A stretch of 64,000 nt of DNA from positions 1 to 64,000 of IMG/VR virus record IMGVR_UViG_3300021478_000022; one strand, written 5' to 3'. Source of the DNA: a virus. Below, in pieces: positions 7,642 through 57,562 of the stretch; position 1 is the stretch's first letter, and every line of letters starts with the position of its first letter. A model generated the notes under the pieces. That model was not told where the DNA came from, searched no databases, and was given only the letters and a program-made list of their open reading frames with translations. The translations under genes were made by a program, and so were the position numbers.

Positions 7642-7644
7642 GAG

Positions 7645-37885: not shown

Positions 37886-38494
37886 TTATTCCCGCTGCGT
37901 CCAGAACATCACCTCACGCATCAGACCGAGCCCATCCACCGTGGATTCCGCCTGAACCTCCCGGTCAACGATCCGGTGCCCCGCCGCTGCGACGGCGCGC
38001 TCCAGGTGATCCCCGGTGAGGTAGACGTGGTGGAACTCGGTGCCGTTGTCGTGGTCCCTCTCGGCGATCTGCATGTCGAAGCAGCCAAAGCGCCCGTGGG
38101 AGAGCAGCTTGGCAAGGATCTGGTCCCACTCGTGCAGCCCGAAGTTCTTGAGGAAAAAGAAGGCGCAGGAGAGGTCAGGTTCAAAGGCAAAGCAAGAGAT
38201 AAGGCGGATGTCATCGTGCCAGAACTGGTGGGCGCGTGTGTCGTTTCTCACCCTTGCCTTTCCCCAGAAATACTCGTTTTTCTCCACTCCCACATAGCGC
38301 ACGTGACATGGCATCCCCTTGGCCACCAGCCCCACCCCACACCCGAACTCCACGACACTCTCGACCTTCTCTCGCTCCATCCGGGGCAAGAGGAACCGCA
38401 GGTGCACCTTGGCGGACTGGTTGAGCAGCCACGTCACCTCCTCGGCCATGGCGCGCTCCTTCGTGTACCAACAGCTACTGTCCGGTAGAGGCAT
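37886..38494 (-). CDS. Class I SAM-dependent methyltransferase
   Basis: VVEFGCGVG, YVGVE. Confidence 0.8.
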   Translation of the reverse strand: MPLPDSSCWYTKERAMAEEVTWLLNQSAKVHLRFLLPRMEREKVESVVEFGCGVGLVAKGMPCHVRYVGVEKNEYFWGKARVRNDTRAHQFWHDDIRLISCFAFEPDLSCAFFFLKNFGLHEWDQILAKLLSHGRFGCFDMQIAERDHDNGTEFHHVYLTGDHLERAVAAAGHRIVDREVQAESTVDGLGLMREVMFWTQRE

Positions 38495-38652
38495 GTTGAA
38501 TCGTCCTCCAGCACAAATGAAGCGGCAGCATGGGAAGAAGGCAAACCCACACATCCCAGCGATGCCACCAGTTTTCGTCTGGCGAAAAGTGCGGTCTGCC
38601 CTCGATGGTCATTTTCCAGAAGACGCCGACCCAGCAATCTTGCGGCTTAAAC

Positions 38653-38832
38653 TCAAGGCGAACCGTCACGGTGCCTCCTTGCCACTCGGCGTTTGACTTC
38701 TTCCATCGCCACATGCAAGTCTCGCCAGTCCTCTTCGGCCCAATCCTTGGCATCGCGTGGCAATCCCTCGTCCGTCCAGCGCTTGGCGTACTCACGCTTT
38801 GTTTTCTTTCGCTTCATTCCGTTCTCTGGCAT
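38653..38832 (-). CDS. Hypothetical protein, paralog of 23652-23897
   Basis: EGLPRDAKDWAEEDWRDLH. Confidence 0.6.
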   Translation of the reverse strand: MPENGMKRKKTKREYAKRWTDEGLPRDAKDWAEEDWRDLHVAMEEVKRRVARRHRDGSP

Positions 38833-38970
38833 GGGACCTCTCCTCGCAGGCTTCCACGTTCTCCACGGCCTCCCTGAGCAGGCACAGGCCACACCGCTCG
38901 TGAGGGGACCAGCACCAGCACCGCTGCTCAGCAAGGACGCGCTTGGCCGATTCGAGAAGCGCGGAGGCCA

Positions 38971-39327
38971 TCAGGCGGTAGTTGGGACGGGACATGGTTG
39001 TTCCTCCAGCCACAGGATTTTCTTGCCTTTGTTCAGCGCGTGAGCTAGTTCGCTGCGTGTCGATTCGCCCACGTACCCGCCGACGTTCAGAATCAGCACT
39101 TCGTCGGCCAGGTCGATTTTGTCCTTGTGCAAGGCATCCAGAGCGATCTTTTGCTCAAGAGTGCAGCCGAATGCCTCGCCGTGGGTTTCTCCAGCAGCGT
39201 GCGGGTAAAAGCCAACGGACAGCACGATCTTGCCAGCCATCGTCTGGCGATAGTTCGCTTCTTGGAATGCCTTCCAGAAGCGAGTCGAGCCACAGAGACA
39301 GACAATCGTTCGTTTCACTTCAGCCAC
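38971..39327 (-). CDS. Conserved phage protein, nucleoside deoxyribosyltransferase-like fold
   Basis: VCLCGSTRF..H..KIDLADEVLILNVGGYVGEST..E. Confidence 0.7.
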   Translation of the reverse strand: MAEVKRTIVCLCGSTRFWKAFQEANYRQTMAGKIVLSVGFYPHAAGETHGEAFGCTLEQKIALDALHKDKIDLADEVLILNVGGYVGESTRSELAHALNKGKKILWLEEQPCPVPTTA

Positions 39328-41193
39328 CTCTCAATCCAGGTAAATATTTCGCTCACATTCTCCCTGCCGTATACGCAGCCTTTGTAGCGGTCCTGATAGG
39401 CCGGATTCGTCCACGAGTCCTTCATCGCCTCGGAGAAGCTGACCAGCCGTTCCTTGTGGGCACTATTTCCAGCTGGCCTCCACCAGGTCACAACGGGGAC
39501 GCCCATGTAATGGGCCATGATTCCTAATCCGCATTGGTAACTCACCACCACCTTGGCCTTCTTCAGGAACGCCAGCGTCTCCCCTATCTCCATCTTTCCA
39601 ATCAAGTCCATCCAGACCATCCCCGCCTCCGCCACCCCCTGTTTGACCCACTTGTCCCAGAACGACCTGTCGTAAGGTGCCCCCACCACGGCGATGTTCA
39701 GCCCCCGCTCCGTGAGACGCTGGCCCAGCTCGACCCAGTGCTTGGGCTCCCACAGCCACCCCATGTTGTGCCCTTCCTCCGTGTGCCCCGACTCCGGGCC
39801 CAGGTAGAAGGCCGCGAACGGCGCCGCCGCATCCCCGACGTCCGAACCACGCTCGGTCCCGGTCCAGTCGAACTCGTCAATGACCGCCCAGTCGACGGGA
39901 TGCTCCGGCAACCACGTCTCCAGTCGCTCTCCACGCTCCAGGACCGTGTTAGGGATCAAGAAGTGATAGCCACCCCTCTCCCCGTCCGGGACGTAGCGGT
40001 AGCGGCCTTTCTCGTCGTTCTTCGGCCCCGTCTCCAGGATCGGCACGTCGAGCAGGTTAACGCTCTTGATGAACGGGAATCGGGACAGGAAGGGCACGCT
40101 CCTCCGGTCCACTTCCTTGTTGGCGTCCCCGTTGAGCAGGACGTTGATGGGTTTGTCCCCGGCGATGGACTTGATCTTCATGAGGGCCCACATGCAGTCA
40201 CCGATACCCTGCGGGAGAACGAAAGGAACCACGGAAGGACCCTCGGGGGGAGTGAAGTGCAAGACCTCGCACAGCCACCGTCTGACCTCACCCGGCAGCC
40301 CCCACTCCCCATCGTAGGTGCGGTACTGGTAGTGCCGGACGAAGTATTCCGCCACCCCACCATGATCGGCCGGGGAGAGGCTTCTCCAGTCCTTGGGGAT
40401 GAGATGGAGGGTGTTCTCGGCAGGGTCGTGAAACTGGATGGGGTGGTGCCCGACCCAGCAGATGAGGGAAGGGGTGTTGGTCGCCGACGCCACCTTGCCG
40501 GGGCCGGAGTCGATACCCACGAACGCCTCGGCGCAGTGGATGAGCGCCGCGATCATCTCCGCGTCCCCGGTCCCGAACCCGCCCCAGATGTCGTCACTGG
40601 CAGGTCGGGGGCAGAAGATGGTCTTCTGGTCGGGCAGGGGGGAGCGGTTGTCCCAGTCGAGGATGACGGGGATGCGACCGGAGGCGCGGATCAGGTCGGT
40701 TATTGATTGCATCTGGAAGTGGTGTAAGTTCTTACGCCAATTCGAGGTATTGCCCTCATAATGGCAAATCACGACGGCTGCCTTCTCTCCGTTGATCGAG
40801 GCGCCGATGGACTGGTAGTAGTCCATCGCCTTCTGACGCGCGACGGCACCAATGCGGATTTCGTAGCGCCCAAGGTCGAGGTCGTAGTTCAGGCCGAAGT
40901 TCTCCGCTAGGCAGTTGGTGATCTTGCTGTTGGGACGGTCGGTGTACTTGCAGTAGTTCTCGTAAAATCCGGCATGATGCACGGAGTCGTAATCCGACTC
41001 ATTTAGCTCCGGCTCCTGATCGTGCGAGACGCGATGGCACAGACCGATCAGCGCCGTGTGCTTGCCACGGCCGACCCTGATGGTGACTTGCCAGTCGGGA
41101 CGGTGACGGGCAAGGTGCTTGAGAACGACGCCCATTTGCACAACGTCGCCTTCAGCCCAAGCCGTGGCTGAACCGGATTAGCAGTTTGACCAT
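39315..41193 (-). CDS. Tandem double GT9 (heptosyltransferase-like) enzyme; 5' end interrupted by 7 extra nt at 41148-41157
   Basis: Domain 1 (HGLG|GDVVQM ... FVGIDSGP); domain 2 (QGIGDCMW ... DLIGK..IGET ... CGLG.MAH); main ORF 39315-41141. Confidence 0.8.
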
Positions 41194-41201
41194 GACTTGG
41201 A

Positions 41202-41390
41202 TTAACCTCCTTTCGTCGCGTAATCGATGATTTCTTGCACCCTTGCCTCAGGCAACGGTGGCTGCTCAGGAATGGAGTCCCATGCACACTGCGCACAGAC
41301 GAAGATGCCGTTCCAGTCCGGTATCGGCTCTGGCGCCAAGATGGCGCTCACCACTGTATCCATTGCTCGTTGGCAGCGAGGGCAGTTCAT
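41202..41390 (-). CDS. Small zinc-ribbon protein
   Basis: MNCPRC...FVCAQC. Confidence 0.55.
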   Translation of the reverse strand: MNCPRCQRAMDTVVSAILAPEPIPDWNGIFVCAQCAWDSIPEQPPLPEARVQEIIDYATKGG

Positions 41391-41539
41391 TCCTGCACCT
41401 CCTGCTTGAGCGCCTCGATCACCTGATCGAACGCCTCTTGGAGTGGTTCGGCCTGTTCGGCATCGTCAAGGTGGATGCCCAGTTCCAAGGCCAGTCCGAC
41501 CTTCTCGATCAGGTTCTCCATCGCTTCGCTTGTGGTCAT
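41387..41539 (-). CDS. Small acidic helical protein (50 aa)
   Basis: Translated by hand; ATGA overlaps at both ends. Confidence 0.5.
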   Translation of the reverse strand: MTTSEAMENLIEKVGLALELGIHLDDAEQAEPLQEAFDQVIEALKQEVQE

Positions 41540-42696
41540 CGCTTCACCTCCTCCAGAATCGGCAGTGGAAACGTCAGCGTCCCGCCCCCGTCCAAGAACG
41601 CCTTCTCGCGCTGGATCAACTCATCGCGGAACGCCCACGGACCTACAAGGTACACGTCGGGCTTCGCTGCCCGCGAGGACTCCTCCGAGACAATCGGGAT
41701 GCGTGACCCCGGTGTCATGTGCATGATCTTCCGTGGGTCACGGTCGGATGCTGCCATGATGTGGTCTTGGTCGATTCCGCAATACTGGAGCACCGTGTTC
41801 ATCTTCGTGGAGGCGCCCAGAAGGTGCACGATCTTGTTCTTGTGCCAGCACTCGTCCAGATAGGCCACCAGCCGCTCCCGGCACGTCCTGACCACCTCCG
41901 GGAAGGCCAGAGGGTACGGGATGGGGTACGGCGTGGGCTGCAAAACCTTGGGCGGCTCCAGCCCAGCGTACAACCGGATCGACCCACCGTTGCACTGGTT
42001 GTAGCTGACCTTGTGCGTGTGCATCCCGGCCTTGCGTACCACGTAATCCAAGGTGTACGCCGAGAAGTAGGACAGGTGCTCATGGCAAACCGAGTCCCAC
42101 GCGCCGTTGTACAGGGCGCGCAGGTCGGCAACCTCGACGCACCACAGACCACCCGGCGCCAGGTTGTCGCTGACGGCCTTGGCAAAGCCCACGGGGTCGG
42201 GGGTGTCGTAGAAGCAGGCGATGGTGAAGATAAGGTCGAACTTCTCACGAGCAAGAAGATGAGTCGGGTAAAAGGCTTTGATGCGGACATGGGTCACCGG
42301 CAAAAGCACATCGCTAGGATCAACCCCTACTAAGTTCTGGTCGTAGGTCTGCGGTCCCCAGGAAAAGAAATTGAGCAGCGTGCCATCGTTGCAGCCGATG
42401 TCCAGGACTCGTTTCGGCCATTCTCCCAGAAGAGTCCTTGCTTCTCTTGCGATTCCTTCCAAGTGTTCTCGCATCGTCTGCGTCACCCCGCTCCTGTACC
42501 AGTAGTTCCGGTACATCAACTCCGGGTCCACCGCATCGCGGAGCTGCACCAGTCCGCACCCCAGATGGCACCGCGACAGCACCAGCGGGAACCGGGGTGG
42601 GTCGGGTTCGCCGATCTTGGGAAACTGACCGCCGAGGCACTGCTCCCCGAAGTCGAGGATGGTTTCCAGGGGTCCACCGCAGACGCGACAGGTCAT
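41536..42696 (-). CDS. NDP-sugar C-methyltransferase (Methyltransf_13/14 type)
   Basis: CRVCG..LDFG..FPL.L..C..CGLVQL zinc domain, LDIGCNDG, HEHLSYF, GGSIR, GASTK.N, PGSRIPI. Confidence 0.9.
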   Translation of the reverse strand: MTCRVCGGPLETILDFGEQCLGGQFPKIGEPDPPRFPLVLSRCHLGCGLVQLRDAVDPELMYRNYWYRSGVTQTMREHLEGIAREARTLLGEWPKRVLDIGCNDGTLLNFFSWGPQTYDQNLVGVDPSDVLLPVTHVRIKAFYPTHLLAREKFDLIFTIACFYDTPDPVGFAKAVSDNLAPGGLWCVEVADLRALYNGAWDSVCHEHLSYFSAYTLDYVVRKAGMHTHKVSYNQCNGGSIRLYAGLEPPKVLQPTPYPIPYPLAFPEVVRTCRERLVAYLDECWHKNKIVHLLGASTKMNTVLQYCGIDQDHIMAASDRDPRKIMHMTPGSRIPIVSEESSRAAKPDVYLVGPWAFRDELIQREKAFLDGGGTLTFPLPILEEVKR

Positions 42697-43616
42697 AGAT
42701 TCGCCCTCCAGTACCGCTCCGTCAGTTCCGTCAGAACTCCCACGTACTGCTCAGGCCCCCAGACCGTGACGGGGGGCAGCAAGTCATCGATCTTCGCAGG
42801 GATCGCGTCCAGCGAACTGTAGACGTGTATCCGGTCCTCACGCATGGTCCCCTCGTCGTCCACCACCATCACCGGCCTTGCGAACGCCGTGGCGAATCGT
42901 GGCGATGTCGGGGACCCACCCTTGCCGCCTTTCGAGGGAGGAAGGACGAACAGGAAGTGGCTGATGTCCTCGACCAAGGGTGCCAGCCCTTCGACCCAAG
43001 CCGACCAGGAGTGCATGACGACCTTGCCGCCCAGAGTTTCTATTTGCTTGACGTATTCTCGGTGCAGTTTAATCCGGTCGGGACACCACATGACTGATAC
43101 GTCAGGGCAGAAGGCCGTGAATGGCACATGTCTGAACAAAGCCCACTTCGCCATCTCCAGCGTGTACTTCTTCGGCTCGCAGTACCCGAACGTCCCGATG
43201 TGCATGGGCCGCTGCTTGGGAACCACGCAGAACGGCAGCACCGGCTGGCGCAGCAGGACTGGCCGGTAGGCATCCAGCTTCTCCTCGGCCTGCTGGGTCC
43301 AGACGAAGGAGGGATAGTCCCCCGGAGTCGGCACACCGGGGTTGTCGTTGTTGTGGACGACGCCGAACTTGATCCGCCGCTCTCGCAGAAAGGAGATGTC
43401 GGCGTCGATCCTGTCGCGCGGGTAGTTCTTGCCCTCGGTGATGAGGAACACATAGTCCGCCTCGGACTCCCCCTTCTCGCCAAGGAACACCTGTGGCCAA
43501 CGACTGAGGCTGACGCGCCAGGCTTTGCAGTGCCGGGCGATGGTGAGCGCCCAGTTGTCCAGGGCCTCGAAGGGGGAACTGCCGGGGAACAGGAAGTGGA
43601 CACGGTTGTGCTTCAT
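42693..43616 (-). CDS. Putative GT-B glycosyltransferase
   Basis: Cluster context; IGTFGY..PKK and S..P.FA.A..RPV.V resemble the GT4 C-terminal domain. Confidence 0.5.
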   Translation of the reverse strand: MKHNRVHFLFPGSSPFEALDNWALTIARHCKAWRVSLSRWPQVFLGEKGESEADYVFLITEGKNYPRDRIDADISFLRERRIKFGVVHNNDNPGVPTPGDYPSFVWTQQAEEKLDAYRPVLLRQPVLPFCVVPKQRPMHIGTFGYCEPKKYTLEMAKWALFRHVPFTAFCPDVSVMWCPDRIKLHREYVKQIETLGGKVVMHSWSAWVEGLAPLVEDISHFLFVLPPSKGGKGGSPTSPRFATAFARPVMVVDDEGTMREDRIHVYSSLDAIPAKIDDLLPPVTVWGPEQYVGVLTELTERYWRANL

Positions 43617-44350
43617 CGGATGAACTCCTCCCACATCGGTCGCCACAGTTGCGGTTGCTCCAGCCACCCCCAGTACACCCCAGGCTTGGAGTCGATGCGT
43701 CCCGTCAGGGGAGGGTCGGACATCTCCTCCATCTTGCGGAAGAACGCAGGCCACTTGGGGTGACGGAGGCACTCATCTAGTGCAAATGTATGCGGATGCC
43801 GACCGAACTTCTTCTGAAGCACTACTAGGCAATCTGCGCGGTCGTAAGACTCATGCGCGTTCCGCTGATTGCACTCCCCGTAGACGTACTCACGGTCCTT
43901 GCCCCACTGCCCGAACTCCTCCGGGTGCTCATCCGTGAGAATGTCCTCGATGAAGTAGTAGCCCCCCACCTTCAGGTTCGGCCAGAGGATGTCCCGGCTG
44001 ATGCGCTGCCACTCCGCCCGGTGCCCGCAGTCGTCGATGATGACGTCGAAGTATTCGGGAGGGAACAGCAGCGCGATGCCGGGGTCCTGCTGGAAGCGCT
44101 GGTAGATGGTCAGGCGCGGATCAGTGACCTCGCGGCAGTCGTGCAGGTCGATGGCGTGGACTTCCCCCAGCGGGAACATCTTGAGCCAGAACTTCAGGGA
44201 GTTGCCGTGGTCGATGCCCAGCTCCAGAATCTTTGCCGGGAAGGCGGTCATGGGACCGAGGAATCGCTCGTATACGGGCATATAGGTATGTTGGCCCTTG
44301 TCTGTGCCACATTCCCTCGCAACTCTTTCCCATTCGCAAGAGAACGTCAT
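43613..44350 (-). CDS. Sugar O-methyltransferase-like (MycE/TylE-like)
   Basis: GTDK..H.Y..YERF, ILELGI..G.SL..W, DVIIDD.GH, LKVGGYYFIEDI. Confidence 0.8.
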   Translation of the reverse strand: MTFSCEWERVARECGTDKGQHTYMPVYERFLGPMTAFPAKILELGIDHGNSLKFWLKMFPLGEVHAIDLHDCREVTDPRLTIYQRFQQDPGIALLFPPEYFDVIIDDCGHRAEWQRISRDILWPNLKVGGYYFIEDILTDEHPEEFGQWGKDREYVYGECNQRNAHESYDRADCLVVLQKKFGRHPHTFALDECLRHPKWPAFFRKMEEMSDPPLTGRIDSKPGVYWGWLEQPQLWRPMWEEFIR

Positions 44351-44922
44351 TGCACGCTCCTCCAGTTGTTCCCGTTCCTTATCTCTTTGATGGCACCATA
44401 AGTTACACCAAACTTGTCAGCGATGGCTTGCAAGGCACCCTTGGGCAATCGCTTTTGACGGCCAACCATTCCTTGAGCTATGACGCGACGTATTTCAACA
44501 ACAGCATCACGGCTTAGCTTTGCCATGCCATTGCGTTCTCCGGCATTGTCGGTGCCGTGGAACGCGCGGTCGTCCTTGTTTTGCTTGGACGTTCCCCATT
44601 GCAGATTGTCGAGTCGATTGTTCGCTGGATTCCGGTCGGGAAAGTGCCGACATTCCATGCCTTCGGGGCAAGGGCCGACGAAAGTTTCCAGAACTAGCCG
44701 ATGGATGTAAGTCGCGATACTTTTGCCCTTTTTGCAAAGGCTCACGAATACGTGGCCGTACTGCTTCAATGCTTGCAATTTCATTATCCGTTCTGGGATG
44801 CTGTAAGAATGCGTCCTGAAGCCACCTCGCGGAACGGAGCGGGCCAAAGATTTCACCCGTCCAAGATTCGACACTTGGTACAGCCCTTCGTAGCCCTTGA
44901 CGTCGCGCCATTCTTCGTTCAT
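44347..44922 (-). CDS. NUMOD4-HNH homing endonuclease
   Basis: EEWRDVKGYEGLYQVSNLGRVKS; IHRLVLETF..CRH..NNRLDNL.WGT..N. Confidence 0.92.
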   Translation of the reverse strand: MNEEWRDVKGYEGLYQVSNLGRVKSLARSVPRGGFRTHSYSIPERIMKLQALKQYGHVFVSLCKKGKSIATYIHRLVLETFVGPCPEGMECRHFPDRNPANNRLDNLQWGTSKQNKDDRAFHGTDNAGERNGMAKLSRDAVVEIRRVIAQGMVGRQKRLPKGALQAIADKFGVTYGAIKEIRNGNNWRSVQ

Positions 44923-45968
44923 AGCATCCCCATCACTTTCAGGAGTTTCGTTGCCCTCGCCGCAGTGGTGTGATTCTTCCTCGCATACTCCAAGAGCGCC
45001 TGCCTGCGTGGAGTCTGATCGTTCGACAGAGCATGGTCGATACAGTCGGCCAGTCCGTCCAGGCCGCACTCGAAGCACGTCTCCGGTGGGAACCACGGCT
45101 CCCTCCGGTAGGCCGGGTAGCAGAGCAGGATCGGGATGGCACCAGCTGCCGCCGCCTCGTAGCACCTGAGCGATTCGCAGTCGTCCGCCCCCGGAGGGAC
45201 CAGGGCCAGCTTGGACTGCTTCATGATCTCCCAGTAGGGCTCCCAGCCTCCCAGCGTGCCCGTGCAGGCGATGGAGTGGTGCATGGTGTGCGTGGAGAAC
45301 AGTTCCCGGAGCATCCGCCAGCGTACGGGCCGGTCGGGATGGCACGACCGTGGATTGCCTGCGAAGAACACGTCGAACGGTCGGTCGCCTTCCCACCATT
45401 TGTCGTCTTTTGTGGGCCAATAATTTCCAAGTACGGCCTGTTCGACTATCTCGCGTGCTTGTTCTCGCGCCGATGGTTTCGGAGTTTCTTGCGGGAACAT
45501 CCGCTCGGGCATGGCGAACGACAGGTGATGCGGACGCATGGGGTAGGGGATGGCGTCGTTGATCTCCCGGCGGAAGTAGGCGTCCACGGGGATCTGCGGT
45601 GGCTCGTGGTGCCATGCCGCATCCCATCCCTCGACGTAGGCGACTTTGCCGTTGGGAGCGAGCAGTTCCTTGATGACCCATTTGGCCCAATCCCAGTCAT
45701 GTTCACGCACAAAGCAGGCGTTCACCACGATCAGATCGAACCACGGGCACCAGTCCTGAAGCACCTCTCCTTCCCTCGACCCACTGATGGCCCGCACCTC
45801 GGGATGCGGTCCCGTGCCGTACATCGCGTCCAGGCTGCTCTTGTGCAGCCAGGGCGAGTTCACGGCGTCCACGACATTGGGCTCGCCTAGAACCTCCTGT
45901 AGGCCGTCCCAGAGGCAGGCAGAGATGTAGTCGGGGTCGTTCTTGCATGTGACGAACAGGCACTTCAT
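44919..45968 (-). CDS. GT-B glycosyltransferase (exostosin/CgeB-like C-terminus), paralog A
   Basis: DVFFAG, SKLALVPPG..SLRCYEAAAAGAIP, HTTAARA. Confidence 0.75.
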   Translation of the reverse strand: MKCLFVTCKNDPDYISACLWDGLQEVLGEPNVVDAVNSPWLHKSSLDAMYGTGPHPEVRAISGSREGEVLQDWCPWFDLIVVNACFVREHDWDWAKWVIKELLAPNGKVAYVEGWDAAWHHEPPQIPVDAYFRREINDAIPYPMRPHHLSFAMPERMFPQETPKPSAREQAREIVEQAVLGNYWPTKDDKWWEGDRPFDVFFAGNPRSCHPDRPVRWRMLRELFSTHTMHHSIACTGTLGGWEPYWEIMKQSKLALVPPGADDCESLRCYEAAAAGAIPILLCYPAYRREPWFPPETCFECGLDGLADCIDHALSNDQTPRRQALLEYARKNHTTAARATKLLKVMGML

Positions 45969-46651
45969 GCTTTTCTCCGCAGGACCAGAGAAGCGAAATT
46001 GTAGAGCCCGAAGATAGGCGTGCCGTAGTCGCCATAGTCGGGGGAGCCGACCGGCTTGAAGTCAGACTTGGCCTGCTCGATGAGTTCCAGCATCTTGGCG
46101 GCACTATAGCATTGACAGTGCGCTGTCAATTTCGCTGTGCCGGTTGGATGGAAGTCGGTCGTGATGGCCAGCGTGCCACCTGGAACAACAGCCACCAGGA
46201 GCCCATCGAAGAACTTCCGATCCTCACCGACGTGCTCGATGACCGACACGCACGTCACCAGATCAAACTGGCCATCCGGGAAACTGCCGTCGAAGTAAGT
46301 GAGTGACCCACCCGGTGTCGCTCCATTGCCAGCTAGTGCCCGCCTGCCCATCTCTTCTTGCTGCGCCTGGTGGTCGCCTATGTCCGACGTGGTGACGTGC
46401 GCCCCGCTCCACGTCAACAACCCAGGCAGCACCGAGTAACTGCCTCCCACGTCCAGGCATTTCTTGCCCGCCAGGTCGCTCCTGGTGCCGGCGGCAGCAA
46501 GGCAGATCGAGTATTCCCACGCCCTGTGCTCGTGGTCGAAGTTGTGACAACCGACGAACAGGTTCCGCGCATGGCCGACGCGCGCCAGCTCGTCCCCCAG
46601 GTGGTGGTAGTCGTCAGGGTGAAACGCCTTGCAGAGAGAGTGGAGCATCAT
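45965..46651 (-). CDS. Class I SAM-dependent methyltransferase
   Basis: R.WEY, LDVGGSYS, FDLVTCVSVIEHV, PGG. Confidence 0.82.
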   Translation of the reverse strand: MMLHSLCKAFHPDDYHHLGDELARVGHARNLFVGCHNFDHEHRAWEYSICLAAAGTRSDLAGKKCLDVGGSYSVLPGLLTWSGAHVTTSDIGDHQAQQEEMGRRALAGNGATPGGSLTYFDGSFPDGQFDLVTCVSVIEHVGEDRKFFDGLLVAVVPGGTLAITTDFHPTGTAKLTAHCQCYSAAKMLELIEQAKSDFKPVGSPDYGDYGTPIFGLYNFASLVLRRKA

Positions 46652-48461: not shown

Positions 48462-48462
48462 C

Positions 48463-49020
48463 AATCCCTCGGAAAGCAGTAGATACTCATTTCCACACCG
48501 CCCAGCACATGTCCCTCAGCTTGAGGAGGTCCTTGCCCTTGGCAAATTCATCCACGGCATGGTTCACACCAAAACCAGGGTCGTCGCCGTAGTCATGCCC
48601 GCAGAGAAGACCGCCCGGCCTGATCTTGGGCCAGTAAAGGTCGATGTCCTTCTTGATGTAGGCGTAATCGTGGTTACCGTCGATCCAGACGAAATCTAGG
48701 TCGTTCGGCAGAAACCGAGGAGCCTCCGCACTGGGCATACGCAAGATCGCGAAGTGCCTGCCGTCATCGTAAGGATGGAGACGCCCACGGCAAATCCTGA
48801 GATTGTGCTCCTCGGCAGCAGCCTCATTTGCCCCGACTATCCCGTAGCCCTCGTAGGTGATCCACGGATCGACCAGAAAGAGGAAGCGCACTCCTTTTTC
48901 CAGAAGCGCCAGCGAGCTGATGCCCCACTGGACGCCGATCTCCACACCCACCCAGCCGGGCTTGATGAATGGCAAAAGGTTGTCAACGGATGCCATTTAA
49001 TCCCTCGGGAAGCAGTAGAT
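48463..49020. repeat. 22-bp direct repeat flanking a methyltransferase gene
   Basis: aatccctcggaaagcagtagat (48463-48484) vs aatccctcgggaagcagtagat (48999-49020). Confidence 0.85.
48487..48996 (-). CDS. Methyltransf_24-type SAM methyltransferase
   Basis: GVEIGV..G.S, VDPW, DFVWIDGNHDY, PGGLLCGHDY. Confidence 0.88.
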   Translation of the reverse strand: MASVDNLLPFIKPGWVGVEIGVQWGISSLALLEKGVRFLFLVDPWITYEGYGIVGANEAAAEEHNLRICRGRLHPYDDGRHFAILRMPSAEAPRFLPNDLDFVWIDGNHDYAYIKKDIDLYWPKIRPGGLLCGHDYGDDPGFGVNHAVDEFAKGKDLLKLRDMCWAVWK

Positions 49021-49575: not shown

Positions 49576-49799
49576 TATTGAGATACCTCTTTGAGCAGAC
49601 GATCGCGCAACTGACAAGCCTTCTCAAAGGTCGCCGTCTCGTACCAGCGCCGGTCGCCACCGAGCAGGTGAACTATGACTCGTGGAGCTATTGAAGCCCG
49701 GCAGGACGCTATTTCACCATCTCTGCCTTCCGCCGCCTCGATGGCTAGGATGTAGTCGCTTCGGAATTGGTCGCCGCTGGGCATTGCAATGAATTTCAT
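49575..49799 (-). CDS. Hypothetical protein
   Basis: Coupled at both ends. Confidence 0.5.
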   Translation of the reverse strand: MKFIAMPSGDQFRSDYILAIEAAEGRDGEIASCRASIAPRVIVHLLGGDRRWYETATFEKACQLRDRLLKEVSQ

Positions 49800-50713
49800 G
49801 GGAAGTTGATGTCCTCCAATTTTCTGAGTCTGTCCACGAGATTATTGATTTCGTTCAACTTGCACGCCACCTGACAATTCTCGTGCACCGGCACTGACTG
49901 CGGAGCCCGGTCGAGGATATCCTTGAGGGAGTCCTTGTAGATGTTGCCCAGCACGAACTCCGGTCCATGCTTCCGCATGTACGCGCACACGTTCACGCTG
50001 CCGTCCTCGAAAATGAAGGGGACCATGTGGAACCCTTCGCACCGCGCGTACCCGTGCTTCTTCCGGGCCTCCTCGAACTTGTACCCCGTCACCTGCATCA
50101 GCGGGTGCGTGAAGTCCGGTGGCTTGATGTCCACCGTTTCCCCGTGGAACTTCAGAGCGGGCCTGCACTGGACGTAATCGGCCCCCACCTCCTCCGCGAG
50201 CCTGAGCGTCTCCAGCAGGTAGGCCCCATCTTCCTTGGCCCCCCGGTAGTTGAACGCGAACCCCAGCGTCTTGCAGGGCCGCAGGGCGCGGATGCACTCC
50301 GGTTTGTAGGGTCGGTCGGTCATGGTGACCCTGATCCACTGGAGCAGGGAGGGGTCGAAGCGTGGCATGGCCAAGGCGTTGGTGAACATGCCTTGATCGA
50401 GACCATGCACCTTCGCACTTTCGACCAGCGTTCCGATGTCGGGGTGAAGGGAAGGGTCGCCGCCTCCCGTCCACGTCACGGCTTTGACTCCCAAGGGTTC
50501 GCACTCTTCCAAGAGAACGCACGCCCGGAACGTCTCTAAAAACACCTTCCTAAATCCCCCAAGGTCTCCATTTGAATAAAAACATTGTGGGCAGTGCGCC
50601 TGGCAAACCCCGCTAGGGCTAATCTCTATCCCCACCGGGTAGACGCGCCGTCCCGCCATGTGCTCAGCGAGTTGGGGATGCAGCGCCAGTTTGTCTTGGG
50701 GGGAAAAACGCAT
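49796..50713 (-). CDS. Radical SAM enzyme with C-terminal SPASM/Twitch-like Cys cluster
   Basis: CQAHCPQC (CxxxCxxC), TGGGDP, FTNA; C..DG.V..C..GNI..CQVAC. Confidence 0.9.
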   Translation of the reverse strand: MRFSPQDKLALHPQLAEHMAGRRVYPVGIEISPSGVCQAHCPQCFYSNGDLGGFRKVFLETFRACVLLEECEPLGVKAVTWTGGGDPSLHPDIGTLVESAKVHGLDQGMFTNALAMPRFDPSLLQWIRVTMTDRPYKPECIRALRPCKTLGFAFNYRGAKEDGAYLLETLRLAEEVGADYVQCRPALKFHGETVDIKPPDFTHPLMQVTGYKFEEARKKHGYARCEGFHMVPFIFEDGSVNVCAYMRKHGPEFVLGNIYKDSLKDILDRAPQSVPVHENCQVACKLNEINNLVDRLRKLEDINFP

Positions 50714-50741
50714 CAGGTAATCCTAATCGACAAGCTGGACG

Positions 50742-51059: not shown

Positions 51060-51083
51060 TTTTTGGCTCCGTAAATCAACTGT

Positions 51084-51419: not shown

Positions 51420-51472
51420 GGCTTTCCCCTTTACTGGATGTCACGATTGCCAATGTGGGCAGTAGGACGTTG

Positions 51473-51679
51473 CTACTTGAATGCCGCGATTCGCTCGCCG
51501 AGAACCCCGGATAGGGCGGTCATCAGGCTCCACTGTCTTTCGAGCCTGCCCTTCTCTTCCCCATCCAGCCCTGCAAACATGGCTGAGGTAAGAAAGGCGG
51601 TGAGTTTGCTCAGCTTGTCGTCAAGTTCCCTTTTCTCACTCACGACGTGCTCTCGATGCGGTTGCATGTAATCCTCCAT
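51473..51679 (-). CDS. crAss001_48-like small helical protein
   Basis: EKRELDDKLSKL..F...L.RQ...M......L.ERI. Confidence 0.7.
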   Translation of the reverse strand: MEDYMQPHREHVVSEKRELDDKLSKLTAFLTSAMFAGLDGEEKGRLERQWSLMTALSGVLGERIAAFK

Positions 51680-51691
51680 TGGAGTTGGGCG

Positions 51692-51889: not shown

Positions 51890-51913
51890 CGCAATCCCCG
51901 TAAAACAGCTTTG

Positions 51914-53056
51914 TCAGTTGCCTTGCGACCACCGATCCCACCCCGCGTCCGCGTACAACCGCACCGCGCTCAACTGCCGACCAATATCCTCCAACTCCCC
52001 TTCCCTGAAGCATCGCCTTGCCAGTGCAGCCATGTCCTTGTGATCCACCCCATTGCACCCGAAGTCCCTTTCGAGTATCCCGTCCGGTCCGTCCGGCGGT
52101 TCATGGTGCCGGGGCTGTTTCTGCGAGTCCTTGATCCTGAACGCCAACCCGCTCATGTGCAGCCAGGGCGGACATTCGCAGTTGATGCACAGGTAGCCGT
52201 TCTGCGCCATCCTGACCCCCAGGTGCCCCTCGTAGAACGTGCACCCGTCCCGCCAGCGCCCCACCGCACGCCACGCATCCATGTTGATGAGCGCCCACGC
52301 GGACGGACCCATTGCCCACGATGCGCCGCGCGTCCGGGGCCAGCCCCCCATGGCCTGCCAGCCCCATCCGAACTGCATCTCGGACCACACCATCGCCCCG
52401 ACCTCATGCCGCAGGATGGGGTCGCGCCATGTGCGGCGGATGATCTCGGGCCAGGTGTCCCCAAGGCCGGGTTCTTTGCACGTCTCCAGCGCCTTGTCGT
52501 GCATCCGCTGCCAACACCAGTAGCCGTCGTTCCAGTTGCCATCGTGATGCTCCGACCCGTAGAAACAGTCGCGCTGGGTGTCCCCGTTCTGGCCGAAGAA
52601 CCCCTCCAGCCCGAGTTCGCACGGCATCACCTTGGCGCAGGCCAGATGCCACGCCTCGAAACTGGTGGTCATGCCAATGGCCCCGACCTTGCGCCCTGAC
52701 CACGTGCGCTCACCGATCTGGTCGAGGGCATCCATCGCGGTTTCAAGCCACCCCATGCTGGGCCTGACGGCATCTTCAATGAGGAACGCCCATGGGGTCG
52801 TCACCAGACTCATCAGGTAGTTGAGGTTGTAGCTTATGCCGTAGGTCGGGCCGGGGTTATCAACCCATTCAACGTCATTGGGCTCGCAGACGCTAATCTG
52901 CCGCAGTTGGTCGTTGGGGTCGCTGCTGCCGTCGTCCGATACGATCTGCCGGTAGGGCAGCTTCGTGAACTTGCGGAGTTCCCGGAGGGAGACGCCAAGG
53001 TGCTTGTAGCTGTCGCCCAGCGTGGCGGTGACGACGGTGATGCGGTCGAGTGTCAT
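51914..53056 (-). CDS. GT2 (GT-A) glycosyltransferase
   Basis: ITVVT, IVSDDGS, G.S..LN, FLIEDA (DxD-like), G..L....W..VG. Confidence 0.8.
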   Translation of the reverse strand: MTLDRITVVTATLGDSYKHLGVSLRELRKFTKLPYRQIVSDDGSSDPNDQLRQISVCEPNDVEWVDNPGPTYGISYNLNYLMSLVTTPWAFLIEDAVRPSMGWLETAMDALDQIGERTWSGRKVGAIGMTTSFEAWHLACAKVMPCELGLEGFFGQNGDTQRDCFYGSEHHDGNWNDGYWCWQRMHDKALETCKEPGLGDTWPEIIRRTWRDPILRHEVGAMVWSEMQFGWGWQAMGGWPRTRGASWAMGPSAWALINMDAWRAVGRWRDGCTFYEGHLGVRMAQNGYLCINCECPPWLHMSGLAFRIKDSQKQPRHHEPPDGPDGILERDFGCNGVDHKDMAALARRCFREGELEDIGRQLSAVRLYADAGWDRWSQGN

Positions 53057-53071
53057 ATTTGGCCTAATCCT

Positions 53072-53437: not shown

Positions 53438-53577
53438 ATCCCAGACTTCCTCTTCTTGTCCCAGTAGGGACTACGGCACTTGGCGCAACGTGTCGGTCTG
53501 CCATTTCTGCGAGGTGTCCACGAGCACCCGCAGCGCTGACATTTCACCTTCGGCAGCTTTACGCTTGTGGTGTCCAT
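53434..53577 (-). CDS. 47-aa zinc-ribbon protein
   Basis: Translated by hand: KCQRCGCSWTPR..PTRCAKCRSPYWDK. Confidence 0.7.
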   Translation of the reverse strand: MDTTSVKLPKVKCQRCGCSWTPRRNGRPTRCAKCRSPYWDKKRKSGI

Positions 53578-53588
53578 ATCTGGATACC

Positions 53589-53618
53589 ACTATACGCCAC
53601 GTCCTATCCCTTCGTCAA
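53589..53618 (-). promoter_or_regulatory. Internal sigma70-like promoter
   Basis: TTGACG-N18-TATAGT. Confidence 0.55.
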
Positions 53619-54880
53619 GCCTGATACCGCAAAATCGCTGACGCCACTTCTTCCGACGGGATCATGGCCATACATTTTGGCGCAGGCGGCTCGGTCAGCA
53701 CTGGGTTCATGCACAGGTCACCGTCCTTCTCCGACCCGTCGTTCAGCGGCACCGTGCGCGACTTCCAGCAGGCTGTGGTGCGGCAGCAGTCCAGCGCCCC
53801 CACGGTCGAGAACAGCGTCTGGAGCGGGTAGGTCGTCCAGTGCCGTGGTTCCCTTGCCCCTCCGATGGTCACGGCAGGTTTCTCCAGAGCTGCCGCGAGG
53901 TGCTGGAGCATCGTCACCCCCGACAAGACCCCCTGTGAGTGGTAAACGAGCCGCACGAGCTGTCTGAGGCTGGTCTTGCCCAAGAAGTCGATGACCCCGC
54001 GCAGAGGCTTGTGGATGTGCTCGTGCGACCCAACCTGCACGAACAGCACCTTCCCTTGCAAGCGATCCACCACCTCCTGATAGAAGGGGTACTGCTTGGC
54101 AGTGTAGTCGGACTTCACTCCGGCGTTGACGAGCCAGAATTTCTGGTCGCGCTTGGTCGCCTCGGTCACCTGATTCATCCACGACTTCTCCTCCGGCGAG
54201 AGCCACAGCATCGGCCGATTCGTGTGGCACTTCAGCGGCACCTGTAGCGCCTCCCCCAAGAACTCGGTGTACGCCTCAAGGAAGTGGATGGCGCGCTGGT
54301 TCGACTCGTGGATCGCCGGGTAGTGTACGACCACCTCCTCGGCGCCCATCGCCTTGGCCGTCTCCACCGTAACCACGTCGGGGTTGTGCTCCCAGAACTC
54401 CGGGGCGCTCGTCTCCACAGCCGTGATGAACCTTCCGGGGTGCTGCTTGTGGAGGCTGTAGACCCCGGCCGTCATGCACAAGACGTCGCCGGGTGAGAGC
54501 ATGTGACGGAGGAGGAGGACTCGTGGTGCTTGGGTCATGACTTTCGGCCTGTAAATGCACTGGGAACAGTCGGTCAGGGTCACATGGTCGTTGCGGTTGG
54601 GCTGGCGGCGCCCCGGACACTTGCACTCGAACAGGTCGAGGAACTTCGACCCGCCGCACTGGACGCACTCGCGCTTCTGGATCTCGCCCTTCTCATCGCG
54701 GACGCGCTTCCAGAGGTAGGGGCAGCGTTCCACCTTGACACCGTGGACGCCGCTGCCGCCCCAGAGGCGGTTGTAGTCGGGATTGGTGTGGTACAGGTAG
54801 CAAAGGCGGCAAAAATCCGTGCTGTACGGCTGGCCGTCTGGCGGTATCCGGTCGCAGGCGCAGGGTCTCACAGCGTCCAT
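53615..54880 (-). CDS. GT9 heptosyltransferase-like enzyme with N-terminal Cys-rich domain
   Basis: SPGDVLCMT, NPDV, FVQVG, DFLGKTSLRQL, HLAAAL, C-terminal CC..ACW..C..KCM.MI. Confidence 0.85.
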   Translation of the reverse strand: MDAVRPCACDRIPPDGQPYSTDFCRLCYLYHTNPDYNRLWGGSGVHGVKVERCPYLWKRVRDEKGEIQKRECVQCGGSKFLDLFECKCPGRRQPNRNDHVTLTDCSQCIYRPKVMTQAPRVLLLRHMLSPGDVLCMTAGVYSLHKQHPGRFITAVETSAPEFWEHNPDVVTVETAKAMGAEEVVVHYPAIHESNQRAIHFLEAYTEFLGEALQVPLKCHTNRPMLWLSPEEKSWMNQVTEATKRDQKFWLVNAGVKSDYTAKQYPFYQEVVDRLQGKVLFVQVGSHEHIHKPLRGVIDFLGKTSLRQLVRLVYHSQGVLSGVTMLQHLAAALEKPAVTIGGAREPRHWTTYPLQTLFSTVGALDCCRTTACWKSRTVPLNDGSEKDGDLCMNPVLTEPPAPKCMAMIPSEEVASAILRYQA

Positions 54881-55566
54881 GTCAGGGTCCCTGAAACGTT
54901 GCCGCAGAGGCACGGCGATTGGCCTAGTTCCTTCACCTGATCGAACCGAACCAGGAATGACTGTGGGGTGTCGCAGTTCGCCACCGCAGGCGGCTCAGCG
55001 ATGTACTGGATGTTGCTGAAGTCGACGGCGCAAGTGAAAGCCCTCCACTGACTCCCGGAGCACTGCAAGCCCACCCGACACTGGCTTATGAGCCCGCTGG
55101 TCTGGTTGGACACCCAGGCGTTCAGGGACGGCTGGAACGCTGCGGTGAGGGTCTGGTTGCAGTTGAAGGTGTTGCCGATGGTCACATGGATGGTTCCCGG
55201 CAGGCTGCAGTTGCACGACAGGCTCGACGCGCTGGGGAACGACCCCACCGAGGTCGCCGACGAACTACCCACCGAAGCACAGCAGAGTGAGTTGTTCAGG
55301 ATCTGGAACTGACACGTCGTCCCGGAGATCACCACGGGGGGCCAGAAGATGTTATCGCAGGTCGAGCGCGGATCGTCGTACACCAGCTGGTTCGTGCCGT
55401 CCGAGCCGATGATGGACAGGACGTACCCTCCCGGCACTCCGGTGGCGTTGGTGATCTGGATGACGTACAGGACACCGCCGACCAAGACGTAGCCGTTGTA
55501 GTTGCCGTCCGAGTCGACAATCATGCAAACCTGAAAGGGGACGCAGGGTAGCGCCATGGGGAACAC
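54868..55566 (-). CDS. Cys-rich virion-like protein with Ser-rich linker
   Basis: CCASVGSSSATSVGSFPSASSLSCNC; C-terminal domain similar to that of 55567-56607. Confidence 0.6.
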   Translation of the reverse strand: MFPMALPCVPFQVCMIVDSDGNYNGYVLVGGVLYVIQITNATGVPGGYVLSIIGSDGTNQLVYDDPRSTCDNIFWPPVVISGTTCQFQILNNSLCCASVGSSSATSVGSFPSASSLSCNCSLPGTIHVTIGNTFNCNQTLTAAFQPSLNAWVSNQTSGLISQCRVGLQCSGSQWRAFTCAVDFSNIQYIAEPPAVANCDTPQSFLVRFDQVKELGQSPCLCGNVSGTLTWTL

Positions 55567-56607
55567 TCAGAAGGTTATTCTAACGTCGATACCAGCAATC
55601 GTTGGTATACAGTTGCAGGCCACCGGCAAACTGGTGGCCTCAAGAACGAACGGGCTACAGTTGGACACCAGTCCGGTAGACTCCTGTCCGTTGATAATCA
55701 GATGCCATATCCCACCACCACTGGTCGGTTGACACTTCACTGCAAAGGTGGGAGCGCTCGACGTTGGGCACAATCCCAGCACCGAGAAGTTTTCCCACTG
55801 GTTGGTCGTCGGGTTGTAGGTCAGGGTATAAGTCCCATTGCAGTTTGTCGTGCCCGTGACCGTGGCGAAGATCGTGTTCGGGACCGTCAATCCTGGACAG
55901 CACGTCTGGTTACCGCTGCTGGACGAGGACTGGCTGGGCAAGCTGCTCTGGAAGCTGCTGGACGAACTGAGCAGACTGCTTGGCTGACTACTGACACTCG
56001 AACTGGACGATGAACAGATCGGTGTCACCAGCAGGCAAAACTGGGTCCGCAGGTTGCAACTGCTCGCAGAAAACTGACTGGAAATCTTGCTGGTGACGCT
56101 CGACACGACGCTGGTCACCGAACTCGACGGCTGGCCGCTCGTGATGGACGTAGGGGACGAAGGCACCGACACGGCACTGCTGGGTTGGCTGGGCTGACTC
56201 ACCTGACTCGACGTCACACTGGAGACGTGCGACACGACCGAACTGACAGATGACAGAGCCGACGAGACGAACGATGACTTCTGCGAACTGGCACTCGACC
56301 CCGATATGGACGAGAACGACCCCCGTCCCACACAGCAGATCAGCGAGACGACGTAGAGCGGCAGTCCGTTGAAATTCCCCACCAGTCGCGCCCGGTAGGT
56401 GCCGCGCGGGACAGGTACGCCATTCGGCTCGAATACCCAGCCTGCCTCCCGGTCCCTGAGCGTTGGCACCCCACCAGCAGCCTGCTGGTTCTGGCATGGG
56501 TAGACGGAGCCTTGTGCCGGTCCCGTGACGCGGATGACGCTCGGGACGACCGGATAGACGGGCTGGCGCGGTCCGAAGAACGGGGGGACAAGGTTGGTTG
56601 ACAGCAT
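55567..56607 (-). CDS. Mucin-like Ser-rich virion-like protein
   Basis: ~135-aa central region dominated by Ser (SSV repeats) between two folded domains. Confidence 0.7.
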   Translation of the reverse strand: MLSTNLVPPFFGPRQPVYPVVPSVIRVTGPAQGSVYPCQNQQAAGGVPTLRDREAGWVFEPNGVPVPRGTYRARLVGNFNGLPLYVVSLICCVGRGSFSSISGSSASSQKSSFVSSALSSVSSVVSHVSSVTSSQVSQPSQPSSAVSVPSSPTSITSGQPSSSVTSVVSSVTSKISSQFSASSCNLRTQFCLLVTPICSSSSSSVSSQPSSLLSSSSSFQSSLPSQSSSSSGNQTCCPGLTVPNTIFATVTGTTNCNGTYTLTYNPTTNQWENFSVLGLCPTSSAPTFAVKCQPTSGGGIWHLIINGQESTGLVSNCSPFVLEATSLPVACNCIPTIAGIDVRITF

Positions 56608-56608
56608 G

Positions 56609-57562
56609 TCATTTGAAGGTCGTCACGATTCCCGCCCACGATGCTTGGGTCAGTCCCGACAGGGAGGCACTTGGCGCCGTGGTGTTCGACAGGACGCGAT
56701 AACCCTCCGCCACCGCTATCGCTGTCCCGGTGATGGATTCGGTCACGTCTTCCCCACCGGGCGTGAACCCGCCGCCCCACGAGTACGCCCCAGAATACCC
56801 CATCAGGAGGAAGGATGCCTCCACATATTCGCTCGGAGTGGTCGTCGTGCCCGTGCCAGCGGTGGGAGTAGAGGTCATGCCGTTGCCGACGCCGTTCAGG
56901 TCCTTGACGCCAGTGATGCCTTTCACCTGAACCGCTTGGATCGTGATAGCCGCGGCGATGCCGCTGGCGGCGAATGCCTCTATATCCCCCGTCAGACCTC
57001 CCCCTATCGTCCAGCAGCCTATCAGCGATGTTTGCGATGGTGTGTTGACGGCGTTCTGCAAGGTCATCGGCAGACCGCCGTAGTAGAGCTGCAAGCCCTC
57101 GTTCTGTCCCACCAGCGTCGCTGTGACCAGCAGCATCGTCCCTGGCGCTGTGGTGATGCTCGGCAGCGTCAGTTGGGTCACAGCGACAGCCTGAGCCGTG
57201 CCAAGGTTGGTGCGAACGATGCCGGGGAGCGCCGCTGCGGAGGAAGTGCTGCTGGACGAGGAGCTGGCACTGCCGCCCAGCGGGCAGCAATTCGTGACGT
57301 AGAGGGGCAGCCCGGCGTAGTTGGTCACAAGGCGACCATCGTAGTAACCGGGTCCCAGCACGATGCCGTTGGGCTCCATGACGTACACAGGCACCCGGTC
57401 GCGCGGGGTCAGGCCGTTGAACTGCACAATGAAGGCCGGGTAGACGTTGGCCCCCAAGATGGCTGGAGCGTAGATGCGCAGGATCTCGTTCACCTGCGGG
57501 TAGATGGGCTGCTCTTGCCCCAAGAATGGCTGCGTCAGGTCGGTGGAGTCGGCGATCTGCAT
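56609..57562 (-). CDS. Virion-like protein: shared N-terminal domain, poly-Ser linker, beta-sandwich
   Basis: N-terminal domain paralogous to 55567-56607 (RDR..EPNG..Y..RLV..GLPLYV..CC). Confidence 0.65.
   Translation of the reverse strand: MQIADSTDLTQPFLGQEQPIYPQVNEILRIYAPAILGANVYPAFIVQFNGLTPRDRVPVYVMEPNGIVLGPGYYDGRLVTNYAGLPLYVTNCCPLGGSASSSSSSTSSAAALPGIVRTNLGTAQAVAVTQLTLPSITTAPGTMLLVTATLVGQNEGLQLYYGGLPMTLQNAVNTPSQTSLIGCWTIGGGLTGDIEAFAASGIAAAITIQAVQVKGITGVKDLNGVGNGMTSTPTAGTGTTTTPSEYVEASFLLMGYSGAYSWGGGFTPGGEDVTESITGTAIAVAEGYRVLSNTTAPSASLSGLTQASWAGIVTTFK

Follow-up and report, generated by a model that had tools for sequence, protein, structure and literature searches.

A phage gene cluster that may glycosylate the serine tracts of its own tail-tip proteins

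Introduction

Why should a phage carry a long row of glycosyltransferase and methyltransferase genes directly behind serine-rich structural genes? This question is raised by the IMG/VR virus record IMGVR_UViG_3300021478_000022 (78,687 bp, CheckV completeness 100%), bases 1-64000 of which form the stretch analysed here ("the window"). Three consecutive genes with serine (Ser) tracts (54868-57562) run into a gene for a glycosyltransferase of the GT9 type, and this gene opens a co-oriented minus-strand cluster of ~17 kb reaching 37886. A preliminary description of the DNA had recorded this arrangement, and it is borne out by the translations, the gene overlap, and the Pfam/NCBIfam matches. The same description proposed that the phage activates heptose and attaches it to Ser-rich fibre linkers. 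We suggest that the phage system glycosylates its own tail-tip proteins at the Ser tracts, a reading to which we give a probability of roughly 55% on the basis of sequence comparison and predicted structures. The proposal of the preliminary description is partly supported, by the tail-tip context, the linkage of GT9 to poly-Ser genes and the presence of partner enzymes, all of which are arguments from comparison; heptose would be the most likely sugar.

Ser-Tract Proteins and the Baseplate Hub

The gene directly upstream of the Ser-tract genes encodes a product for which no sequence-family match was obtained. Its AlphaFold2 (AF2) model, with a predicted local distance difference test (pLDDT) score of 84.6, has the fold of a baseplate hub: Foldseek matched it in the PDB to the baseplates of contractile injection systems, VgrG1, Mu gp44, the pyocin R2 hub, and T4 gp27 (E 3e-12 to 1e-7). 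The fold spans the whole chain, with ~400 aligned columns, and the structural neighbours in the ESM Atlas agree. The hub family comprises 324 metagenome proteins, the members of which begin at residue 22 of the 435-aa open reading frame (ORF).

The Ser content of the three downstream proteins is listed in Table 1; the genome mean is 5.8%. Since their tracts are encoded by a mix of TCN and AGY codons, they are selected at the protein level and do not stem from a simple DNA repeat that happens to be read in this frame. The 317-aa and 346-aa proteins have in common an anchor domain of ~95 aa ending in an invariant CC, and the Ser tract starts right after it; in the 317-aa protein, the tract GGSASSSSSSTSS follows residue 93. 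The anchor family consists of 364 representative clusters in which the anchor is always N-terminal, while total lengths range from 90 to 1112 aa and the C-terminal parts are very diverse. Receptor-binding or fibre proteins show this kind of "mix-and-match" architecture. At least 40% Ser within a 20-aa stretch just past the anchor was found in 54 of the 116 long anchor-family representatives, as compared with 0/120 members of the hub family and 0/120 members of the GT9 family.

Searches of Pfam and PHROGs with the Ser-tract proteins of this phage and of ten other loci gave a single match, to LamG in locus L007. In the ESM Atlas, the C-terminal domain of the 317-aa protein lies near viral LamG-like clusters (TM-score 0.57), which we treat as a lead only. 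Because the Ser-tract proteins directly follow a hub gene identified by its fold, and two of them share the diversified anchor, they are likely located at the tail tip. Their designation as "virion-like" in the preliminary description, unproven at first, now rests on the fold of the upstream hub.

The GT9 Glycosyltransferase

The GT9 gene and the last Ser-tract gene overlap by 13 nt, from the start codon of the former (ATG at 54880) to the 3' end of the latter. The 432-aa ORF (53615-54913) matches PF01075 with 39.6 bits at a cut-off of 22. Its AF2 model (pLDDT 88) has unambiguously the GT9 fold, as the VIA Z-scores are 23.2 for 3TOV, 20.7 for WaaF, 20.0 for TibC, and 19.7 for WaaC, compared with ~11 for other GT-B and epimerase folds. 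The top Foldseek match of the model is TibC (E 1e-11), which is only about tenfold better than WaaF.

The protein combines an N-terminal Cys-rich domain, which most distant members of the family lack, with a conserved C-terminal Cys cluster. Three residues, D143, K267, and K273, are invariant in 26 aligned sequences. The PGD motif containing D143 aligns with the MGD motif of WaaC and has the same offset as Asp110 of TibC; Asp143 is located 13 residues into the GT9 core, like TibC Asp110 and WaaC Asp13. The correspondence of K267/K273 to the lysine contacting the beta-phosphate is given by offset only. The conserved cysteines C376 (with C377 as the alternative), C382, C401, and C414 lie in a C-lobe insertion. 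In TibC, Asp110 and an iron finger of four cysteines (Cys339, Cys342, Cys358, and Cys370) have been described (PMC4358343). The offsets between the phage cysteines and those of TibC are 37-44, as against a range of 34-44 in the structural alignment, and from this we infer that the phage Cys cluster may correspond to the iron finger.

Co-Occurrence of the GT9 Subfamily with Poly-Ser Genes

The GT9 enzyme has 1399 homologues, many of them on contigs of ~75-82 kb. To analyse their surroundings, we used 38 IMG/VR loci chosen by GT9 alone via an alignment-based scan (single-protein IMG/VR scans with the hub and with the GT9 gave no matches). A poly-Ser ORF was defined by at least 50% Ser over 30 aa, and was considered near when within 4 kb of GT9. 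Such an ORF was present in 18/38 loci, in 16 of them upstream and on the same strand. Of the poly-Ser ORFs in the fetched DNA, 21 are near GT9 and 4 lie far away (binomial p 2e-5). GC content (33-68%) and genome size (45-548 kb) vary widely among the loci, some of which belong to jumbo phages.

Within the close group L002-L006, the order of hub, Ser-tract anchor proteins, GT9, and further transferases is kept; in L003-L005, the genes of the hub, the anchor proteins, and GT9 are syntenic. The anchor domain was not found in the distant loci. Since it is absent there while the poly-Ser linkage persists, the element shared by all these contexts is the Ser tract itself. This provides the main argument for the Ser run as the acceptor. 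A further comparison, of Ser tracts in 8/11 hub-group records with GT9 and in 0/3 without a GT9 match (Fisher p ~0.055), is too weak to count, and the three latter records are only 42-80% complete.

The subfamily also occurs in bacterial chromosomes. A search with a hidden Markov model (HMM) detected it in 16/151 genomes of the Gemmataceae-MAG family, and in 8 of the 12 chromosomal loci examined in this family a poly-Ser protein adjoins GT9. These loci often contain a 164-aa nucleotidyltransferase similar to HldE domain II and a second GT9 of the 608-aa type. The earlier designation of the subfamily as "phage-specific", based on a pattern-limited contig scan that yielded 4 loci, was dropped after this search. 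One genome of the family (G093, 12.2 Mb; loci L053-L057) has six copies of the subfamily, several of them beside poly-Ser proteins of 574 to >1200 aa and the 164-aa nucleotidyltransferase, and some of its loci are not prophage-like. Loci L058 and L061 resemble prophage tails.

Genes for HldE-II-like nucleotidyltransferases are situated <2 kb from GT9 in L004, L024/25, L036, and four chromosomal loci. In L004, the nucleotidyltransferase is fused to a TylF-type O-methyltransferase, in L024 a methyltransferase is fused to the nucleotidyltransferase, and in L022 and L023, GT9 itself is fused to Methyltransf_24. Since these genes adjoin or fuse with GT9 or the nucleotidyltransferase, it seems that sugar activation, transfer, and O-methylation belong to one pathway.

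A separate observation concerns L014:7805-11320, where a 1172-aa fusion protein, encoded right after a poly-Ser protein, combines two GT9 stretches with an FkbM methyltransferase and an Erv1/Alr sulfhydryl oxidase. It is a hint that disulfide bonds are formed in the cytoplasm where this module is present, as would suit the CC motifs and Cys-rich tips of the Ser-tract proteins.

Sugar Supply and the Rest of the Cluster

The HldE-like enzyme named in the preliminary description was recovered with both of its domains. HldE is the best family match of this protein (PRK11316, E 9e-38; rfaE_dom_II, E 3e-29; rfaE_dom_I, E 5e-21), and the best PDB match, obtained for the transferase half, is 5X9Q (E 5.5e-19).

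In the ~17-kb cluster, the enzyme classes that had been listed were largely found again: two GT-B genes besides the GT9 enzymes, the nucleoside diphosphate (NDP)-sugar C-methyltransferase, four other S-adenosylmethionine (SAM) methyltransferases (two of them weak), and the radical SAM enzyme (Table 1). Two of the listed items did not hold in the form given. The GT2 gene falls below the Pfam threshold, and it is retained here as a possible GT-A gene; no meaningful PDB sequence match was obtained for it, and its homologues occur in L002 and L006. In place of four GT9-like domains, only three stretches are supported, one in the lead enzyme and two in the 608-aa protein. When the 359-aa and 286-aa proteins and the 608-aa GT9 were compared with the GT9 alignment by hhalign, no signal appeared, so that a fourth domain is unsupported. 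PDB sequence searches with the products of 42693-43772 and 46648-47508 returned nothing meaningful.

The TylF-like protein is probably a sugar O-methyltransferase, and its relatives are fused to GT9 or to a nucleotidyltransferase in other phages. The C-methyltransferase additionally matches Methyltransf_13, _23, and _14. The radical SAM enzyme has a homologue in L006 that is 63% identical. Relatives of the two-domain GT9 were found in 8 loci, mostly also with poly-Ser proteins. Of the two weak methyltransferases, the Methyltransf_24-like one has relatives in 6 loci (jackhmmer), and the one at the cluster end is syntenic in L002 and L003. The homing endonuclease is an insertion between a GT-B and a methyltransferase gene, and is outside the glycan pathway. 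The small ORFs inside the cluster include one for a 68-aa protein related to crAss001_48 (window 51473-51679, E 1.9e-14) and one for a protein of 65 aa, 15% of which are Cys.

Table 1. Genes of the candidate glycosylation module, its surroundings, and recognisable phage genes (positions as in the record; aa, amino acids)
Feature	Position	Strand	Basis or description
GT9-fold glycosyltransferase, candidate Ser-tract O-glycosylation enzyme	53615-54880	-	Pfam PF01075, 39.6 bits; AF2 model
Baseplate hub protein (gp27/P2 gpD/Mu gp44/VgrG-N fold)	57562-58806	-	AF2 model; Foldseek
Tail-tip protein 1 (probable location)	56609-57562	-	317 aa, 7.9% Ser; ~95-aa N-terminal anchor domain, short Ser tract, beta-rich C-terminal domain
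Tail-tip protein 2 (probable location)	55567-56607	-	346 aa, 22.3% Ser; same anchor domain, two long Ser-rich tracts, Cys-rich tip
Cys-rich protein 3	54868-55566	-	232 aa, 11.6% Ser; Ser tract, without anchor domain
HldE-like bifunctional sugar kinase/nucleotidyltransferase, candidate ADP-heptose synthase	21094-22461	-	NCBIfam, both domains
Possible GT-A (GT2-like), weak	51914-53056	-	Pfam E 0.0011, 19.4 bits vs cut-off 23.3
Radical SAM/SPASM enzyme	49796-50713	-	Pfam/NCBIfam
Methyltransf_24 (TylF-like) methyltransferase	48487-48996	-	Pfam E 1.3e-13
GT-B glycosyltransferase (Glyco_trans_1_2/exostosin-like)	47505-48464	-	Pfam E 4e-10
SAM methyltransferase (Methyltransf_11/23)	45965-46981	-	Pfam E 5e-6
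GT-B glycosyltransferase (Glyco_trans_1_2/exostosin-like)	44919-45968	-	Pfam E 6e-6 and 2e-6
NUMOD4 + HNH homing endonuclease	~44347-44930	-	Pfam E 3.9e-15 and 2.7e-11
Methyltransf_24-like methyltransferase, weak	43613-44350	-	Pfam E 4e-4
NDP-sugar C-methyltransferase (zinc-binding N-terminal, SAM, and C-terminal domains)	41536-42696	-	PF08484 E 1.6e-30, PF08421 E 3.7e-13
Two-domain GT9	39315-41210	-	Pfam E 1.6e-14, 54.3 bits vs cut-off 22, two stretches; matching 608-aa protein at 39315-41141
Methyltransf_23-like protein at cluster end, weak	37886-38554	-	Pfam E 8e-4
Major head protein	35-1249		Recognisable phage gene
Lambda-D-like decoration protein	2156-2950		Recognisable phage gene
Large terminase	10602-12155		Recognisable phage gene
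MuF-like minor head protein	60741-62993		Recognisable phage gene
Mu-type portal	62969-64528		Recognisable phage gene
Head-tail adaptor and Neck1-like genes	past base 64000
LamG/beta-propeller protein, 1264 aa	past base 64000

Proposed Mechanism and Its Alternatives

We propose that the GT9 enzyme would act late in infection, in the cytoplasm of the host, and put a sugar on the hydroxyls of the Ser tracts. The most likely donor would be ADP-heptose, made by the phage HldE-like enzyme from heptose phosphates of the host. The acceptor tracts would be those just past the anchor of the immediately upstream-encoded proteins, which would be attached close to the hub at the tail tip. Extension of the glycan may fall to the second GT9 together with the two GT-B enzymes and the possible GT-A, and its decoration to the O- and C-methyltransferases. 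The fibre linkers would then bear a mucin-like "brush" of methylated glycan. In this scheme, we infer the acceptor, the sugar, the role of the whole cluster in making a single glycan, and the biological role.

Several points weigh against this scheme, which is partly supported: its support comes from comparative genomics and fold predictions. With respect to the lead enzyme, the fold does not tell the acceptor because the Z-scores of TibC, WaaF, and WaaC tie, so that protein-acting enzymes are not separated from those acting on lipopolysaccharide (LPS). Its best NCBIfam matches are the LPS heptosyltransferases I and II (33 bits vs an equivalog cut-off of 185). In the profile search of PDB sequences with the GT9 family, there was no match at E 0.01; TibC was not retrieved, and only marginal matches to WaaF and WaaC appeared. 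By all three measures (NCBIfam, PDB profile, and Z-scores), the enzyme is not closer to the bacterial autotransporter heptosyltransferases (BAHT) than to the LPS enzymes. In the comparison with TibC/AAH and WaaC/WaaF suggested by the preliminary description, the resemblance to TibC/AAH is thus confined to structure, where TibC ties with WaaC and WaaF; in sequence, the enzyme is no nearer to TibC. As to the suggested co-occurrence of Ser-rich genes, GT9, and HldE, the pairing of GT9 with poly-Ser genes is evident, and HldE-like partners often accompany it. For about half of the GT9 loci, no poly-Ser ORF is present at distances of up to 10 kb.

Other points concern the sugar and its supply. The HldE-like protein scores 130 bits at a PRK11316 equivalog cut-off of 521, its domain models are likewise below their equivalog cut-offs (102 vs 181.5 and 75 vs 345 bits), and its gene is ~15 kb away from the cluster, in the replication region. 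No GmhA-like or GmhB-like genes were found in the phage, nor were RmlA-like ones. GmhA-like genes are present in 39/41 genomes of the presumed host family and absent from the phage, so host heptose phosphate is plausibly available and the precursors would come from the host. A C-methyltransferase normally requires an NDP-4-keto sugar, and the phage encodes no dehydratase. Compared with its homologues in L003 and L011, the two-domain GT9 has a 7-nt interruption at the 5' end. At window 41139-41210, the reading frame gives MVKLLIRFSHGLG followed by TGA, and it resumes 7 nt on with DVVQM, so that the HGLG|D motif is split. In L003 and L011 the motif is unbroken (HGLGDVVQ/HGLGDVMQ), and the catalytic-type Asp of the first domain is thus cut off here. 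A frameshift, an assembly error, or recoding may be responsible.

The best surviving alternative accepts the link between GT9 and the Ser tracts and doubts the chemistry: another sugar or group may be placed on the tracts, or the other ~15 kb may make a glycoconjugate or small molecule unrelated to the fibres. A C-methyltransferase together with a radical SAM/SPASM enzyme is typical of deoxysugar and natural-product pathways. The lack of a recognised dehydratase or RmlA-type enzyme, the variable content of the cluster among relatives, and the many loci that pair GT9 with a nucleotidyltransferase domain alone, without the kinase, point the same way. The nucleotidyltransferase itself, however, matches heptose-1-phosphate adenylyltransferase (E 3e-29) much better than glycerol-3-phosphate cytidylyltransferase (E 1e-7), with 5X9Q as its best solved relative, and the methyltransferases that are fused to GT9 and to the nucleotidyltransferase in other phages tie methylation to sugar transfer. 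On this evidence, we consider a different chemistry unlikely.

Targets outside the virion proteins are less likely. The glycosyltransferases might modify the host envelope during infection, at the LPS core or on another lipid-linked glycan, and so mask receptors or exclude other phages; the Ser tracts would then be unmodified flexible linkers. The characterised GT9 enzymes are mostly LPS heptosyltransferases, and the nearest NCBIfam families, the structural tie with WaaF and WaaC, and the occurrence of the subfamily in bacterial chromosomes agree with such a function. Yet it is hard to square with the adjacency of poly-Ser ORFs across unrelated phages and with the translational coupling of the GT9 gene to a tail gene. 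Moreover, no tyrosine integrase was found in this phage, which makes lysogenic conversion unlikely for it. An envelope target is therefore improbable in our opinion. Hypermodification of phage DNA by heptose-containing glycans, as on 5-hydroxymethylcytosine in some phages, is very improbable: phage clusters of glycosyltransferases and a nucleotidyltransferase, one of which yields heptosylated bases through a cytidylyltransferase and a GT-B enzyme, are documented (bioRxiv 10.1101/2023.12.21.572611) and a segment of a C5 cytosine DNA methyltransferase (10102-10605, matching just the first half of the profile at E 1.6e-43, with the second half not located) abuts the large terminase gene, but these systems need a C5-methyltransferase, a TET-like oxidase, and T4 beta-GT-like enzymes rather than GT9, a Tet/JBP dioxygenase was not found at E <= 0.1 in the complete genome, and the present cluster lies in the tail module with a lead enzyme that tracks poly-Ser genes.

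Comparison with Known Systems

Glycosylation of the phage's own tail-tip proteins would have its closest parallel in BAHT (TibC and AAH; PDB 4RAP/4RB4), in which a GT9-type GT-B core O-links the heptose of ADP-heptose to protein serines in the cytoplasm (PMC4358343). In both cases, the enzyme gene adjoins the gene of the acceptor (a candidate acceptor in the phage), an extra N-terminal domain precedes the core, and the four-Cys metal finger in the C-lobe of TibC may have its counterpart in conserved Cys at matching offsets in the phage family. Unlike that of TibC, the N-terminal domain of the phage enzyme is Cys-rich. The candidate acceptors also differ, being low-complexity poly-Ser tracts in phage tail proteins and not the beta-helix repeats of autotransporters; no autotransporter passenger was found next to GT9, the neighbours of which are poly-Ser tail-tip proteins. 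WaaC and WaaF (PDB 2H1H, 1PSW) have the same fold (Z 19.7-20.7) and an N-terminal GD motif of the catalytic type, but their acceptors are Kdo2-lipid A or heptose, and they have no linkage to poly-Ser genes.

In terms of acceptors, a resemblance exists to GtfA/GtfB of Gram-positive bacteria, where the long Ser-rich repeats of adhesins are O-glycosylated in the cytoplasm by a GT-B enzyme encoded beside its substrate, and the glycan is then extended. These enzymes differ from the phage system in belonging to GT4, using UDP-N-acetylglucosamine, and serving bacterial surface adhesins exported by the accessory Sec route.

Among viruses, phage glycosyltransferases encoded among structural genes modify the virion proteins of mycobacteriophages (Freeman et al. 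2023, as cited in PMC12619734). The glycans are situated there on the C-termini of capsid and tail-tube subunits in phages of Actinobacteria, and the part of PMC12619734 that treats this work reports no GT9, HldE, or poly-Ser acceptor. In contrast, the candidate targets considered here are tail-tip proteins, and the host is presumably of the Gram-negative type. The chlorovirus PBCV-1 uses its own glycosyltransferases and sugar methyltransferases to decorate structural proteins in the cytoplasm (PMC4691112); it differs in being a eukaryotic virus whose enzymes belong to other families and whose major capsid protein carries N-linked glycans of an atypical kind.

Phage virion glycosylation is so far documented mainly in mycobacteriophages, and protein O-heptosylation only in a few autotransporters of the E. 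coli type. A full-text literature search combining phage, heptosyltransferase, and poly-serine found no published description of the module. One can suggest, tentatively and with the odds somewhat against it, that poly-Ser tracts are portable glycosylation "tags" read by a widespread phage and prophage GT9 subfamily with a TibC-like metal finger, which would use ADP-heptose supplied via phage HldE-type enzymes to build methylated, heptose-based mucin-like fibre brushes in many unrelated phages. If so, protein O-heptosylation would for the first time be known from a system other than autotransporters, and phages of Gram-negative-type hosts would have a general way of glycosylating their virions. 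It would mean a common sugar-coating of virus particles that has gone unrecognised over GC contents of 33-68% and genomes from 45 kb to >500 kb, with possible consequences for host recognition, protease resistance, and environmental persistence. A Ser run with its cognate enzyme would then also be a simple sequence tag for glyco-engineering.

Other Features of the Genome

The window has a GC content of ~60%, and nearly all of its genes are on the minus strand. The host of this uncultured phage probably belongs to the Planctomycetes. The recognisable structural genes fall into two blocks, with the terminase, decoration, and major head genes at the low end (window 35-12155) and the portal, MuF, hub, adaptor, and 1264-aa LamG/propeller genes at the high end (record 62969-78639); this split agrees with circular permutation of the genome. 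Genes for a tape measure, sheath, or tube were not recognised in the record.

Between the MuF and baseplate hub genes, window 58817-60748 encodes a 643-aa protein, the N-terminal half of which resembles flavin adenine dinucleotide (FAD)-dependent amine oxidases and protoporphyrinogen oxidase. Its position is kept in L005. Between the terminase and head genes, window 4641-6057 encodes a SEC-C-motif protein (147 aa) and an Anti-TRAP-like zinc-ribbon protein (178 aa).

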